Source: a bacterium (GTDB lineage Bacteria > Babelota > Babeliae > Babelales > JAUWHS01). From it: a stretch of 53,782 nucleotides of DNA. The position numbers and the translations under genes are program-made. The stretch is from the NCBI GenBank assembly GCA_043818275.1, contig JBDRFY010000078.1, positions 1 through 53,782 of the forward strand. Reading direction: 5' to 3'. Below, piece after piece: positions 6,428 through 32,631 of this stretch (position 1 is its first letter; every line of letters begins with the position of its first letter). The notes beneath the pieces were generated by a model, which saw nothing but the letters and a program-made list of their open reading frames with translations, was not told the DNA's origin and searched no databases.

Positions 6428-8923
6428 ATGAGCTACAATTTTAAAAACATAGAAAAAAAATGGCAGGATTCCTGGCAAAAAAATCCTTATTTCAAAACAA
6501 AAAATGATAAATCTTTAAAAAAATTCTACTGTCTTGATATGTTCCCTTATCCTTCAGGCTCAGGTCTTCATGTTGGTCACTGGAAAGGTTATGTGCTTTC
6601 TGATGTTTACGCACGAATTAAACTTTTGGAAGGCTACAATGTTTTACACCCAATGGGCTGGGATGCCTTTGGTCTTCCAGCTGAAAATGACGCGATTAAA
6701 AAAGGAAAACATCCCAAATCAAATACCGCAAACAATATCAAAGTTTTTAAAGAACAATTGCGCGCAATTGGCGCAATTTATGATTGGACAAAAGAAATAG
6801 ACACAACTGATCCAAATTACTACAAATGGACTCAATGGATTTTCGTAAAAATGTTTAAAGCCGGACTTGCGTATGAAAGTAATGCCCCAATTAACTGGTG
6901 TCCAAAATGTTTAACCGGACTTGCAAATGAAGAAGTTATTGGTGGAGTTTGCGAACGTTGTAACACGATGGTCGAAAAGAAAAATATTCGTCAATGGATT
7001 TTAAAAATCACGCAATACGCTGACAAACTTTTAAACGATCTTGATCAACTTGAATGGGCAGAAAAAGTTAAATTAATGCAAACAAATTGGATCGGTAAAA
7101 GTACAGGCGCAAGAATTACTTATAAAACCGATTCTCCTTCGATACATTCTGCTCCGCTAAAAGCTTCGCAGAACACTCAGGATGAACGGGTTGAATTAAC
7201 AGTGTTTACCACAAGACCAGATACTTTATTTGGTGAAACTTTCATGGTTGTGGCACCTGATCATGAACTTGTTGAAAAAATAATCAAACCTAAATACAAA
7301 AAACCGGTTGAAGAATACCAAAACGAAGTTTCTAAGATGTCTGAAATCGAAAGAACAGCTGAAGATAAAGAAAAAACAGGTGTATTTACCGGAAGTCATG
7401 CCATTTGTCCTGTAACTGGCAGGAAATTACCTATTTATCTTTCAAGTTATGTTTTAAAAGATTATGGAACAGGAATTATCATGGCTGTTCCAGGACATGA
7501 TGAGAGAGATTTTGAATTTGCAAAAAAATTTGAAATTGAAATCATTCAGGTAATAAAACCTTACAATCCTGAAAATGAAAAAGATCTTTACGATAAAGAT
7601 GGAAAATTATTAAGAGCGTTTGTTGGTGATGGAACTTTAATTAATTCAGGACAATTTGATGGATTTGATGCAAAAAAAGAAGGCGTTGAAAAAATAATAA
7701 AATACCTGGAAGATAAAAAACTTGGATCCTCAGAAACCTGTTATAAATTACGCGACTGGATTTTTTCACGTCAACGTTACTGGGGCGAACCAATTCCTCT
7801 TGTTCATTGTCGAAAATGTGGCGTTGTTGCAGTACCTGAAGATCAACTGCCTGTAACATTGCCCGAAGTTGAAAAATATCATCCAACAGGCACAGGAGAA
7901 TCTCCTTTGTCAAATATCAAAGAATGGGTAAATACAACCTGTCCGGAATGTAATGGACCAGCAAAACGCGAAACAAATACTATGCCTCAATGGGCCGGAT
8001 CATGCTGGTATTTCTTACGGTATCCAAATCCAGATTTAAAAGATAAACCATTTGATGAAGCCGATATTAAATATTGGCTTCCAGTTGATCTTTATGTTGG
8101 TGGAATTGAACATGCAGTGCTGCATCTTTTGTACTCACGTTTTTACATTAAATTTTTGCATGATCAAGGTTATCTTCCATTCAACGAACCGTTTAAAAAG
8201 CTTTTCAACCAGGGAATGGTTTGTATGAAATCGCCATTAACCGGAAAAGTTGAAAAAATGTCCAAATCAAAAGGCAACGTTGTAAATCCTGATGAAATCG
8301 TAAAACAATATGGAAGTGACACGTTGCGTATGTACATGATGTTTATGGGACCACCTGAACTTGATACAGAATGGCAAATGGATTCGATTAAGGGTGTTCA
8401 CGCGTTTTTAAATAGATTGTGGAATTTTTTAACAACCAAAGAAAATATTAAAGAAAAAGTGGATGAAAAATCATTAAAACGTTTCCATCTCTTCTTAAAA
8501 GATTTTCAAACAAGAGTTGATAATTTTAAAGTTAATACTGCAGTTTCAGCGATCATGGAATACTTAAATGATTTAAGTTCTAATAAATTTGAAATCAACA
8601 AAAATCTAACTGAACAATTATTAACTGCTATTTCAATCATGGTTCCTCATTTTTCTAGTGAATTAATGGTTCAAGTTGTAGGCAAAGAGCTTGAAAATTG
8701 CACCTGGCCAGAATATGATTCCGAACTAGCACAAGTTGATGAAATAGAAATTGCAATTCAGGTTAATGGAAAACTACGCGGAACAATCAAAACAACAAAA
8801 GGTATTTCACAAGAAACAATTAAATCGCAGGCAAAAGAAATTATTGCGAAATGGCTTGAAGGTAAAAAATTAGTTAAAACAATTTTTGTTCCAGATAGAT
8901 TAATTAGTTTTGTTGTTAAGTAA
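6428..8923 (+). CDS. leuS: leucine--tRNA ligase
   Basis: MFPYPSG-LHVGH, FTTRPDT, GTG-MAVPGHD editing domain, [16 protein letters not shown]. Confidence 0.98.
7135..7189 (+). repeat. palindromic repeat with nested CGAAG module, in frame within leuS
   Basis: TCCTTCGA...CTCAGGATGAACGG ends match the other copies; internal TTCTGC-TCCGCTAAAAGCTTC-GCAGAA (7147..7173); encodes [18 protein letters not shown]. Confidence 0.85.
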
Positions 8924-25963: not shown

Positions 25964-26695
25964 ATGAGTACAACATTTCTTGCAATTGAAGGTAGCTACA
26001 CAAATTTACAAATAGCTCTTTTCAAAGATAAAACATGTATACAAAAAATTAGTGGCGATAATTTAAAAGCCAGTTCAACTCTAATTTTAAAAATCGATGA
26101 AATTCTTAAACAAAATAAAATCAAACTTTCTGATCTTGATTTTATCTCCGTCAACCAAGGTCCGGGGGCATTTACTTCCCTTCGGGTTATAATCGCAACA
26201 GTAAATGGAATATCTTTTGCGACAAAAATTCCATTGATAGGCATTGACGGTCTTGATGCGCTAAGCGAACAAACATTAAATTTATTTTCCGAAAAAGAAA
26301 ATCCAACAAAATTAATAAGTTTATTAAATGCGTACAGCAACGAAGTTTATTTTTCTGTAAATAAAATAAACGAAAATAAATTAGAAAAAATAAAACCAAA
26401 CGGCTACGAAAAAATTGAATATTTTTTAGATGAAATTGCAACCCTTCGACAAGCTCAGGGCGAACGGGAAGTTAATAAAAAAATATTGTTCACCGGCAAT
26501 GGAACAACTTTACATAAAAACCTTATTCAAAAAAAATTAGGCTCAAACGCAATTTTTTCAGAAAATATTTTACAAACCACAGATGTAGATCAAATTGCAA
26601 AAATGGCCTTGCAAAAATGGAACCAAAAAAATGACCCTGTTTATAAACTCAAACCTCTTTATCTAAAAACACAAACATTTGCTGTTAAAAAATAA
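25964..26695 (+). CDS. tsaB: tRNA t6A biosynthesis protein TsaB
   Basis: GPGAFTSLRV, GIDGLDAL, FTGNG, PLYLK. Confidence 0.93.
   Translation: MSTTFLAIEGSYTNLQIALFKDKTCIQKISGDNLKASSTLILKIDEILKQNKIKLSDLDFISVNQGPGAFTSLRVIIATVNGISFATKIPLIGIDGLDALSEQTLNLFSEKENPTKLISLLNAYSNEVYFSVNKINENKLEKIKPNGYEKIEYFLDEIATLRQAQGEREVNKKILFTGNGTTLHKNLIQKKLGSNAIFSENILQTTDVDQIAKMALQKWNQKNDPVYKLKPLYLKTQTFAVKK
26441..26467 (+). repeat. 27-bp palindromic repeat in frame within tsaB
   Basis: ACCCTTCGACAAGCTCAGGGCGAACGG = TLRQAQGER, exactly 9 codons on codon boundaries. Confidence 0.92.
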
Positions 26696-27980: not shown

Positions 27981-29594
27981 GTGCAGTTAAAAAAAGAAAA
28001 AGTAAATCCAACAATGCTTGTAATTTTGGATGGATTTGGAATATCCAAACAAAAAAAAGGCAATGCTGTTTATGCGGCAAAAATGCCAACCTGGCAAAAA
28101 ATATTAAATGAATATCCCCACACACAATTAAAAGCTTCGGGAAATGCTGTTGGTCTGCTTTCAGGGTATATTGGAAATTCTGAGGTTGGACACACAACTT
28201 TGGGCGCAGGAAAAATTGTAAAAACAGTGTTAAAAAAATTTCACGAATCGATTGATGATAAATCATTTTTTAAAAACGAAACATTACTGCAAAATTTAAA
28301 AAAAATAAAAAAACAAAACGCATTACATTTAATGGGACTTTTATCAAATGGTGGAGTTCATAGTCATGAAAAACATCTTAATGCATTAATTCATCTTGCG
28401 GCAAAACTAAAAATTAAAAACGTTTATATTCATCCATTTTTAGATGGGCGCGATGTTGCAGAAAAATCGGCTTCCACGTTTTTAAAAAAATTGGACAAAA
28501 TTTGCAACATTGAAAAATGTGGAAAAATTGCAACGCTTCATGGACGATTTTACGCAATGGACAGAGATAATAATTGGGATAGAACAAAAATCAGTTATGA
28601 TGTTTTATGTGATCCTAAATTAAACCATTCGATAAAACCCTTCAACGATCTCAGGGCGAACGGTATCTCTAAAATTCCAGAATTTCATTCATGGCAAGAG
28701 GTATTAAAATGGTCGTATGTTCATAACATTACAGATGAATTTTTCTATCCAACAAGATTACTTGAAGATGGAATAATTAAAAAGGACGATGGCATAATTT
28801 TTTTTAATTTCAGACCGGACAGAGCAAGACAACTAACAGAATGTTTTTTAGATCCAAAATTTAATCATTTCAAAATCCAGGATTTAAATCCAGCAGATGG
28901 AACATTAAAATTTTTCGTATCAACAACCCAATACAAAAAAGATTTCAAAAATCTGATTTTATTTGAAAAAGAGATAATTAATAACACCCTTCTTGATGAA
29001 ATAGAAAAAAATAAAAATAATAATTCTGTTTTTATAATCGCTGAAACCGAAAAATACGCGCATGTCACATATTTTTTTAAAGGACGCAAGGAAGAAGAAT
29101 ACAGCAATGAAACCAGGATCTTAGTTCCCTCAATAAAAACAAAAAACTATATTCAGCATCCGGAAATGTCGGCTGAAAAAATTACAGAACACATCATCAA
29201 ATCGTTAAAAACAAACCCGGCTTTTTTTTATTTAATTAATTACGCCAATCCGGATATGGTAGGACATTCTGGAAATTTTGATTCAACGGTTAAAGCTTGC
29301 GAATTCGTGGACAAACAAATTAAAAAACTTTATGAACTTGCAGTTGAAAAAATGAACGGGACAATATTTATTCTTTCTGATCACGGAAACGCTGAAGAGA
29401 TGCTGACAAAAACAAATAAACCAAAAACGTCTCACACAAAAAATCCGGTTCCTTTTGTTTTTGTTAACAAAAAATGGAAAAACAAAAAATTAAAAATGAA
29501 TAACAATCTCGGCCTTGCAAATGTTGCACCTACAATTCTTAAATTTTTAAATTTGAAAATACCAAAACAAATGGAACAAAAAACAATTTTTTAA
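27981..29594 (+). CDS. gpmI: 2,3-bisphosphoglycerate-independent phosphoglycerate mutase
   Basis: ILDGFG, GNSEVGH, DGRD, GRFYAMDRD, AETEKYAHVT, NPDMVGH, SDHGN. Confidence 0.97.
   Translation: MQLKKEKVNPTMLVILDGFGISKQKKGNAVYAAKMPTWQKILNEYPHTQLKASGNAVGLLSGYIGNSEVGHTTLGAGKIVKTVLKKFHESIDDKSFFKNETLLQNLKKIKKQNALHLMGLLSNGGVHSHEKHLNALIHLAAKLKIKNVYIHPFLDGRDVAEKSASTFLKKLDKICNIEKCGKIATLHGRFYAMDRDNNWDRTKISYDVLCDPKLNHSIKPFNDLRANGISKIPEFHSWQEVLKWSYVHNITDEFFYPTRLLEDGIIKKDDGIIFFNFRPDRARQLTECFLDPKFNHFKIQDLNPADGTLKFFVSTTQYKKDFKNLILFEKEIINNTLLDEIEKNKNNNSVFIIAETEKYAHVTYFFKGRKEEEYSNETRILVPSIKTKNYIQHPEMSAEKITEHIIKSLKTNPAFFYLINYANPDMVGHSGNFDSTVKACEFVDKQIKKLYELAVEKMNGTIFILSDHGNAEEMLTKTNKPKTSHTKNPVPFVFVNKKWKNKKLKMNNNLGLANVAPTILKFLNLKIPKQMEQKTIF
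28624..28663 (+). repeat. degenerate palindromic repeat in frame within gpmI
   Basis: Core ACCCTTCAACGATCTCAGGGCGAACGG (28637..28663) preceded by the partial ACCATTCGATA; encodes HSIKPFNDLRANG. Confidence 0.85.
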
Positions 29595-30711: not shown

Positions 30712-30918
30712 AATGAAGCGCTCATCGACTTTTAAGTCGATGAATTGCGCGAAATTCTTCTGCATCCTTCGCATAAAGCTTCGGAGCACCCTGCGAAGTT
30801 TTACACGAAGAAGGGGAAGCCAACCCTACTTCGTACCGCCATCCGGCGGCACTTCGAAGTGTTCTACTCCGCCATTCATCCCTAAGCTAAAATACTTGGT
30901 AATTTTGGCGAAGTAGAA
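30712..30918. repeat. intergenic array of stacked modular hairpin repeats
   Basis: GC-rich island with at least five hairpins (30712-30760, 30765-30789, 30789-30815, 30826-30859, 30862-30918); two modules recur inside rnpB. Confidence 0.85.
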
Positions 30919-30981: not shown

Positions 30982-31422
30982 ATGTTTTTAGCCTTTTTAT
31001 TTTTTTTAATCGATTTCATTTTTTTTGCTTTTTTTAACAAATTCATAATAAATACCCTAATAATTTATCTAATTTTTATGATTTTTGATCAGCAAAAATT
31101 AAATGTAAAAAGCCTAATTTTGCCAATTTTTTTGTTAATTTTACAGGATGAGATGATAAATGGACGCTTTGGGCTAAATCTAATTTACCTGATTCCCTTA
31201 ATTTTGATTTTTAATTTTTTGCGCAAAATCATGAATTTTCCTATAATTTTGAAATCATTTTTTTTGTTTTCTGCCTTTTTTGCCAATTTTTTATTGAAAA
31301 AATTTATTTTAATGCAAAATATATCGATGCATTCGACAATTAAGATATTTTCAATTAATTTATTATTACTTTATTTGACAATTTTAGGCATATGGGGCAA
31401 TCGCTCTATTTTAAAAAAATGA
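30982..31422 (+). CDS. multi-pass membrane protein, possibly MreD-like; 3' end overlaps rnpB
   Basis: About 5 hydrophobic segments and an L-QD...GRFGL pattern reminiscent of MreD; family not firmly recognised. Confidence 0.5.
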   Translation: MFLAFLFFLIDFIFFAFFNKFIINTLIIYLIFMIFDQQKLNVKSLILPIFLLILQDEMINGRFGLNLIYLIPLILIFNFLRKIMNFPIILKSFFLFSAFFANFLLKKFILMQNISMHSTIKIFSINLLLLYLTILGIWGNRSILKK

Positions 31423-31816
31423 AGCGCTCAACGGCTTAAAGCTGTTGTATTGCGCGGAATTCTTCGAAGTACCGCAAATAGCGGTACGAAGTAGAATAGG
31501 GAGGAAAGTCCGGACTCATAGCAGGTCAGATGCCTTACAAGAATAATTTATTCAAGTAAGGGGGATGAAAATCCACGGAAAGTGCCACAGAAAATATACC
31601 GCCTAAGTTTTTATTAATTTAGGTAAGGGTGAAAACGTGTGGTAAGAGCACACGGGCAAATATAGTAATATATTTGTAGGCAAACCCCATTTGGAGCAAG
31701 ACAAAATAAGCAGATTTTAGTTGCCTGTTCTTTTTATATCTGCGGGTATGTCGCAAAGATAGATGATTGCCACTCAAATTTATTTTGAGTACAGAATCCG
31801 GCTTACAAGTATGCCC
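31386..31816 (+). ncRNA. rnpB: RNase P RNA, type A
   Basis: GAGGAAAGTCC, AGTGCCACAGAAA, AGGGTGAAA, GGCAAACCCC..GAGCAAG, ACAGAATCCGGCTTA; P1 GGCATAT/GTATGCC and P2 GGCAATC/GATTGCC. Confidence 0.97.
31418..31497 (+). repeat. two repeat modules inserted in RNase P helix P3
   Basis: 31418..31465 matches 30712..30760; 31462..31494 matches the reverse complement of 30826..30859. Confidence 0.88.
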
Positions 31817-31860
31817 TTTTAAATTTATTACTATTTAAAATTCTAATTTTTTTATAAAAT

Positions 31861-31890
31861 AAAAAGCGCTTACTTTTGGTAAGCGCTTTT
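31861..31890 (+). terminator. terminator downstream of rnpB
   Basis: AAAAGCGCTTAC-TTTTG-GTAAGCGCTTTT. Confidence 0.8.
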
Positions 31891-31905: not shown

Positions 31906-32631
31906 ATGGATTATATTAAAATGTTTTCAAATAAATCTGGCATTATTTTAATCATATTACCATTTTTTAGTTTCATCCTCGGCTATCTGGCATTGCACCT
32001 ATTTTTTCAAAAGCAAGAAATAATGGTCCCAAATGTTATTGGAAAAGATTTGCAGGAATGTATTAAAATAATTTCAGATAAAAGTTTAAGTTTAAAATTA
32101 TTGCGCACACAACAAGACAATGACCTTCCTGAAGGAATAGTTTTACAACAAATTCCTGGAGCTAATCAAAAAATAAGACCAAATCAAAATGTTTTCATAA
32201 CAATATCTAAAAAACCGAAACCTGCAATCGCACCAAATTTTATTGGGCTGAATCAAAAAGAAATAATCAAAAATTCAAAAAAAGCTGCCATTTTAAATAA
32301 ATCTTTCTGGTTTAAATCAATTTATCCGGTTAACACATGCATCAGTCAATACCCAGAAGAAGGACAACCATTAAAAAATCAAAAATTAATTACTTATTTT
32401 TCTGCCGGAAGCAATAATTTATTCATTGTTCCAAATTTAAAAGACGCAACATTAAATGACGTAAAAGAAAATTTAAATAATGAAAATATTTCACTGGAAA
32501 TTTCTCACATTAAACAAAATGGTGATAAATTTGATGACAAAAATTGCATCATTATTGATCAAAAACCAATGGCCGGTTCAATTGTTGATATGAATAAACC
32601 TTTGCGAATTCAGTTACAGGTAACTCCTTAA
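31906..32631 (+). CDS. membrane-anchored PASTA-domain protein (three PASTA, no kinase)
   Basis: N-terminal TM; VPNVIGK..QQIP, APNFIG..SQYP, VPNL..DQKP. Confidence 0.88.
   Translation: MDYIKMFSNKSGIILIILPFFSFILGYLALHLFFQKQEIMVPNVIGKDLQECIKIISDKSLSLKLLRTQQDNDLPEGIVLQQIPGANQKIRPNQNVFITISKKPKPAIAPNFIGLNQKEIIKNSKKAAILNKSFWFKSIYPVNTCISQYPEEGQPLKNQKLITYFSAGSNNLFIVPNLKDATLNDVKENLNNENISLEISHIKQNGDKFDDKNCIIIDQKPMAGSIVDMNKPLRIQLQVTP

Follow-up and report, generated by a model that had tools for sequence, protein, structure and literature searches.

Our main finding is that helix P3 of the RNase P RNA in this bacterial genome contains a single 77-base copy of a dispersed repeat that has IS200-type ends and no gene; this copy was likely inserted by single-strand transposition with the transposase TnpA acting in trans. 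Within the window, that is, the whole stretch of 53,782 nucleotides that was analyzed, the element is bounded; it has copies elsewhere, carries recognizable end motifs and is absent from the P3 of relatives, and its terminal TGA serves as the stop codon of a gene that overlaps the RNase P RNA gene. The insertion of repeats into peripheral helices of RNase P RNA is already known; what is added here is a readable mechanism, together with a stop-codon swap in the overlapping gene. The usual repeat in a helix of this RNA has no known mover, whereas here the genome itself reveals the ends, the target and a candidate transposase, which makes this route of ribozyme-helix growth testable. Knowledge of RNase P catalysis is unchanged by the finding.

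Results

The rnpB gene and its P3 helix

The window is contig C78 of assembly G000 (1.33 Mb, 31% G+C, 92 contigs, 94% complete). Its plus strand carries rnpB, the gene for a class A RNase P RNA of about 435 nt (31383..31821), which was identified by a match to Rfam RF00010 of 192.6 bits, the cut-off being 100 bits, and whose 5' end was placed by P1/P2 pairing. Membership of class A draws on the covariance-model match, P1, P2, P4, the conserved core and the protein partner rnpA; whole-genome searches of G000 returned a single match for rnpB and likewise one for rnpA. The pairing of P1 (31387-31393 with 31809-31815) and of P2 (31396-31402 with 31765-31771), as well as the start of the P4 5' strand at 31501, were read from the sequence. 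The Rfam alignment begins at 31442, within the insert described below, and so places the 5' end of the gene 55-60 nt too far downstream. Helix P3 (31405..31500, plus strand), delimited by sequence pairing and by comparison with relatives, is 96 nt long and closed by an AU-rich basal stem. On the 3' side of the gene lies a terminator-like hairpin (31862..31890, plus strand; a consensus match only), and no match to a sigma-70 promoter was found upstream on the plus strand.

Elsewhere in the window, a tmRNA gene occupies positions 22-408. A copy of the tmRNA 3' end, followed by hairpin modules, is present at G000:C34, about 7050-7140, which suggests that an element has integrated, its second end being next to the tmRNA gene of the window. 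Two frames of housekeeping type (25964-26695 and 27981-29594) contain short in-frame peptides that we take to resemble translated hairpin repeats.

P3 in related genomes

P3 is a peripheral and variable helix of RNase P RNA, and the 12-48 nt (median 20) that it measures in relatives, over 57 parsed of 59 loci, are consistent with this. The comparisons proposed in the initial annotation, with the Rfam class A model and with the P3 of relatives, were both run: the gene scores as given above, and a long P3 is not common to the relatives. A pattern for P3s of 41-101 nt, blind to longer P3s and to variant P2 motifs, matched in 16 of 261 genomes of the phylum; 11 of these matches were true long P3s (this genome included), 4 were spurious and 1 was unparsed. 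The right end of the element was absent from the 10 other long P3s. G001, which belongs to the same genus, has a P3 of 48 nt with the same basal stem and without the element, the DNA of the two genomes being only about 70% identical. The metagenome collection gave 0 matches to an rnpB of the same species or genus. Relatives that share a long P3 while lacking dispersed copies had been named at the outset as the pattern that would speak against a repeat origin; with the short helices just described, and with 48 nt and no element in G001, that pattern was not seen.

Expansions of other kinds were observed in rnpB genes of the comparison set. The P3 of G001 (L031, G001:C4, about 850-900) is an independent expansion, by tandem triplication of its own hairpin. 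In the rnpB gene of G140 (L194, G140:C3:294600-295100), P3 and P12 each contain modules of the form CTACTTCG-hairpin-CTTCGAAG, of which the genome has 13 copies, and a further repeat-like insert follows P5/P7. In G018 (L056) and G035 (L058), a different dispersed-type hairpin repeat, which we take to be a hairpin-repeat family, lengthens P12. Finally, the P3 of G188 (L192) measures 90 nt as against 57-59 nt in three congeners, and the overlapping gene there reads through to a later stop; this insert was not counted as a repeat insertion because no dispersed copies were found in its own genome at E 0.01.

A single bounded element within P3

The initial annotation described two modules between the strands of P3, each with a counterpart upstream, and all the sequences that it quoted were found at their places. 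Module A recurs 706 nt upstream with 83% identity over 58 nt (E 7e-10), and positions 30826-30859, read as the reverse complement, match module B with 85% identity over 34 nt. The sequences are as described, but the modules are not two separate units: A and B are parts of one bounded element of 77 nt (31419..31495, minus strand), a gene-less, IS200-type copy of which the right end is intact and the left end is a stub. Its two outer boundaries match the ends of the element family to the base.

The right end corresponds to module A (31419..31455, minus strand), as assigned from end motifs and stem comparison. It comprises the terminal TCAT (31422-31419), hairpin arms at 31429-31436 and 31440-31447 and, at the position of the right guide (31451-31448), AATA where GATA is usual. 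The stem carries a single change, at 31443: in the RNA the pair becomes G-U, on the transposon strand A-C. Module B (31462..31494, unstranded), which belongs to a second dispersed hairpin family, consists of a hairpin (31469-31487) between CTTCGAAG and CGAAGTAG, and occupies the place taken in other copies by the left-end hairpin; what remains of the element itself is the right hairpin and a left stub, with no left hairpin and no left guide. The target site, CCTAT (31496..31500, minus strand; family consensus TTTAT), doubles as the 3' strand of the P3 base; it is one letter off the TTAT core and is found in 1 of 54 copies, the P3 copy alone. Since the right guide is changed and the left hairpin absent, the P3 copy is probably immobile.

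The second copy in the window, the upstream one (30713..30917, minus strand), is complete, with 205 nt, both end hairpins and nested hairpin modules.

A dispersed family

G000 was pooled with loci from relatives (10), GTDB (8) and metagenomes (40), which gave 57 distinct copies, 12 of them in G000; copies with an identical 5' flank were merged into one for this count, and the searches were near-exact, so that diverged copies are under-counted. The 40 metagenome loci include 2 chance matches, and some are cut at contig ends. Both ends are present in 54 of the 57 copies, whose length ranges from 67 to 277 nt, and transposase gene and terminal inverted repeats are absent. Subterminal hairpins at both ends are typical of the family, the P3 copy excepted, and other small hairpins nested in the element loops, module B among them, account for the variation in length. 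The left flank reads TTTAT in 38 of 54 copies and has the TTAT core in 45 of them, the last two letters being part of the search anchor; the right end is TCAT in 52 of 57.

No repeat longer than one T flanks the copies, the empty sites available for this comparison coming from G001 only. Such sites were seen at the rnpB gene of G001 and at the G001 orthologue of the gene preceding copy C90. None was found in G001 for copy C72, nor in G000 for three G001 copies, where the spacers are too diverged.

Both modules occur beyond chance: 13 pattern matches to module A in the genome reduce to 12 distinct copies, and module-B-like hairpins number 29 as against 0 in each of 5 shuffled genomes. Dispersed copies were found in 6 of 60 relatives besides G000, and 3 of the 8 GTDB records with the element are titled Candidatus Babeliales or Dependentiae; viral contigs yielded none (0 loci). 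The proposal that P3 was expanded by a dispersed repeat is borne out by these copies, in this genome and in relatives, taken with the 12-48 nt of the relatives' P3.

Some further observations concern individual copies. The one at G000:C22:13524 interrupts a frame that resembles hicB by eye. The L097 and L126 copies have a common 5' flank and different 3' flanks, which suggests either recombination between copies or a chimeric contig. In addition, short GIY-YIG genes lie directly 3' of tRNA genes, with hairpin modules between, at G000:C50:67836, C18:26387, C21:10479 and C6:11653.

Similarity of the ends to IS200 elements

In IS200/IS605 elements, guides and cleavage motifs pair position by position, and this rule was applied to the ends of the family. 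The right hairpin is preceded by a guide GATA or GAAA in 42 of 56 copies, and the left-guide position reads AAAA or AATA in 29 of 52. Subterminal hairpins with guide tetranucleotides that pair with cleavage motifs are what the consulted parts of two sources describe for IS200/IS605 ends (PMC6006769; bioRxiv 10.1101/2023.03.14.532601).

A search for TnpA gave matches in 52 of 251 genomes of the phylum, and the ends were compared at the 30 best tnpA loci. TTTAT followed by an AAWA guide was seen in 22 of 27 of them, and in 20 of 24 the right guide is paired with the right end as the rule requires. The pairs in agreement with it covary (GAAG/TCAC, AAAG/TTAC and GATA/TCAT, the last being a single such pair). 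G000 itself encodes an intact IS200 TnpA of 129 aa (PF01797, E 1.6e-41), with a TTTAT target and an AAAA guide; the ends of this in-genome IS200 are similar to those of the element, not identical.

PATEs are gene-less derivatives of IS200/IS605 elements (PMC3119063; bioRxiv 10.1101/2023.03.14.532601, both as excerpted). The ends, the TTTAT target and the guide motifs of the present element match those of IS200 elements of the same phylum, which makes a PATE mobilized in trans by TnpA its most likely identity. Among the 8 GTDB, 0 viral and 40 metagenome loci, none was a transposase-bearing element with exactly these ends, and mobilization in trans is therefore presumed. The TnpB domain (PF07282) was not found in G000, which is 94% complete.

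REP/REPIN sequences with a RAYT were also considered and rejected: four longer Y1 genes are flanked by other hairpins and not by module A, and the guides of the element are GATA and AAWA, not the GTAG/GTGG of REP/REPIN.

Stem covariation

Covariation was scored over 57 copies and 8 stem pairs, which makes 456 cells. The consensus pair occupies 433 of these; 8 are compensatory, 5 are G-T on each strand and 5 are mismatched. The covariation of the stem reported initially is real, but it belongs to the transposon hairpin and not to the RNase P RNA. Indeed, the upstream copy, which lies outside the RNase P RNA, has 2 compensatory pair changes and the P3 copy has 0, being nearer to the family consensus. 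With no compensatory cell in P3, the idea that structure rather than sequence is conserved in this part of the RNase P RNA is not supported.

DNA and RNA records and predicted fold

The insert is not misassembled. A groundwater metatranscriptome contig of 220 nt matches 31383-31602 with 0 differences at a depth of 54, a second contig of the same RNA library matches 31576-31711, and the bins 31056-31340 and 31911-32300 are without depth in that library. A DNA record from another study covers 31297-31518 with 2 differences at a depth of 2; the difference at 31424 would break an outer stem pair, and at this depth it may be an error. No joint that skips the insert was found in the DNA and RNA records examined, runs X3, X5 and X6 having too little sequence to be used. 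The RNA check suggested initially thus gave a contig that spans the insert and none that skips it, which fits retention of the insert in the RNA; this evidence is one contig from one library, to which DNA carry-over may contribute, and contigs give no strand and cannot prove a start at 31383.

In every completed fold both hairpins of the insert form, and 1-2 of its bases pair outside P3. The predicted fold of the P3 region has a z of -4.0. For the base of P3, the predicted pairing probability is 0.79 when P3 is folded alone; in a P2-closed context it is 0.44 with the insert versus 0.99 without, and in partly constrained whole-molecule folds, computed without tertiary contacts, 0.00-0.07 with the insert versus 0.2-0.97 without. 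The insertion in rnpB is likely to be tolerated in our model, although the base of P3 is predicted to be weakened by the insert, which counts against tolerance.

An overlapping gene and its stop codon

A conserved membrane-protein gene of 146 aa (30982..31422, plus strand) overlaps the 5' end of rnpB. Its product is very probably MreD-like, as judged from Atlas features alone; it matched no Pfam or NCBIfam family. The frame passes through P1 and P2 into P3, the last conserved residues, G-N-R, being encoded by the P2 strand, and its stop codon, the TGA at 31420-31422, is the terminus of the element. Neither this overlapping gene nor the IS200-type ends figured in the initial annotation. Of 58 loci examined, 30 keep such an overlapping frame open, and in 20 it ends within P3; 17 of the proteins align as a single membrane family with 19-55% identity. 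In many Dependentiae (loci L003-L055), rnpB is overlapped at its 5' end by an MreD-like gene of this kind, which often stops inside P3.

In silico removal of 31419-31495 leaves the C-terminus of the protein unchanged, with TAG as the stop codon; in G001, the overlapping gene has a TAG stop at nearly the same place. The target reads A-TAA on the other strand and the right end A-TGA, so that an element inserted antisense at a stop codon would spare the protein and provide the gene with a new 3' hairpin. The swap shows how an element without genes can take up residence at the ends of genes while the protein bears no cost.

Across the family, the TGA of the element closes a frame of at least 80 codons in 14 of 55 evaluable copies, as against 2 and 0 for the other frames and a baseline of 6.7% of non-genic AATAAA sites in G000 (p = 1e-5), figures that come from rough gene calls, a baseline of one genome and related genomes that are not independent. 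Copy C90 offers an example on one side only: in G001, the orthologue of the preceding gene stops with TAA in an ATAAA target, and here the element follows and the stop is TGA. Docking at stop codons as a general habit of IS200 elements was rejected, with 2 of 28 full-length elements versus the 6.7% baseline (p = 0.57). Since full-length IS200 elements show no enrichment at stop codons, retention is likelier than targeting as its cause. It is conceivable, and we put this forward tentatively, as a reading with the odds against it, that the element is a stop-codon-swapping PATE whose copies at stop sites are selectively kept, and that the P3 copy passed both protein-stop and ribozyme-fold constraints and is now becoming RNA structure.

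Discussion

Origin of the insert

In the scenario that we favor, a full element would first have entered in antisense, 3' of CCTAT, on the tip side of a short P3. The old TAG stop would then have been displaced downstream and an in-frame TGA would have replaced it, since target and right end both end in AT, and the upstream protein would have remained unchanged. The left-end hairpin would later have been lost in favor of module B, probably in an exchange made possible by the CTACTTCG...CTTCGAAG flanks common to both, and decay of the right-end guide and stem would have immobilized the copy; this step, itself unobserved, is needed because the P3 copy has neither left hairpin nor left guide. Finally, the insert would have been kept in the RNA, where its two hairpins, each self-contained, sit on a peripheral helix and are tolerated rather than useful.

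It is improbable, in our view, that the same element came by another route, such as recombination, gene conversion, template switching or the GIY-YIG nucleases of module-B hairpins, instead of by TnpA. This would accord with a P3 copy that is devoid of left hairpin and guide and sits at a non-consensus target. It would also accord with C11, a module-B copy with the same short flanks and no right end, for which a recombinational route is possible. Furthermore, CTACTTCG-hairpin-CTTCGAAG modules exist free-standing, they flank short GIY-YIG genes in G000, and modules of this kind entered P3 and P12 of the rnpB of G140, another Dependentiae genome, without an IS end. Sequence-specific single-strand GIY-YIG nucleases linked to repeats have been described (PMC11893778, in part); in a comparison with this Ssn/SRM type, the adjacency of related module-B hairpins to short GIY-YIG genes in G000 is a candidate association only. 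However, the exact coincidence of the outer boundaries with the family ends is explained by a single insertion and not by random conversion, and P3 has no flanking homology with the other copies.

Less probable still than such a route, given a single insertion by TnpA as the preferred reading, is that the insert has been co-opted, its hairpins serving the RNase P RNA (folding, stability or a tertiary contact) or ending the upstream transcript or its translation, under selection at the RNA level. By folding, the change at 31443, which keeps a G-U pair in the RNA, costs the RNA hairpin less (-15.1 instead of -19.6 kcal/mol) than the DNA hairpin of the transposon strand (-5.8 instead of -13.8 kcal/mol). 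One substitution cannot show selection, however, and the G-T changes across the family have no strand bias (5 and 5). IS605 stem loops are kept at the RNA level at gene 3' ends (PMC2775950, as excerpted), and the enrichment at stop codons of gene-less copies, not shared by full-length IS200 elements, points to selective retention. Against co-option stand the confinement of the insert to this species among those searched and the 31424 difference in the second-strain record, which would break an outer stem pair if it is not an error at depth 2.

That a single duplication of rnpB sequence decayed into the upstream copy, or that the junction is an assembly error through a repeat, is hardly credible: several copies do lie at contig ends in this 92-contig assembly, but 57 distinct copies occupy unrelated places, independent DNA and RNA records span both junctions, and the P3 of relatives is without element sequence.

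Comparison with known systems

Searches of the main texts of the open-access literature turned up neither an IS200-type element within rnpB nor an overlap of rnpB in Babeliales, and no stop-codon swap in an overlapping gene like the one described here. STRR repeats reportedly occur in the rnpB of heterocyst-forming cyanobacteria, as Vioque is said to have described in 1997. There too, a repeat found throughout the genome reportedly enlarges a helix at the periphery of RNase P RNA; it does so as a tandem array of heptamers, whereas here P3 has received a single bounded transposon derivative with readable ends.

Rickettsia palindromic elements occur in tmRNA and RNase P RNA genes. They are palindromic repeats found in genes (PMC1779305; PMC10969869) and resemble the present case in that a host-dependent bacterium bears gene insertions without obvious loss of function; the portions of these sources considered name no mobilizing enzyme, whereas here the ends point to an IS200 TnpA.

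In the consulted part of a study of Borrelia lipoprotein genes, IS605 stem loops (PMC2775950) are likewise end hairpins of IS200/IS605 type, free of transposase, that lie over gene ends and have G-U variants; those are single ends by protein genes, whereas here a two-ended element replaces a stop codon inside an RNA gene. IStrons (PMC4227781, as excerpted) share the IS200/IS605 type, the TTTAT target and harmlessness in genes, but they splice out, whereas the present element lacks an intron and is still present in the RNA contig.

The closest likeness is to PATEs as they are portrayed in the excerpts considered, which also lack terminal inverted repeats, have a palindrome close to each end with other small repeats lodged inside, show fused IS ends and covariation of guide and end, and use a TTTAT target as in ISGst2. 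The PATE descriptions examined, themselves partial, contain no counterpart of the stop-codon enrichment seen here. The family reported here differs from them also in being another sequence family, in its Dependentiae-type records and in having one copy in an essential ribozyme gene.
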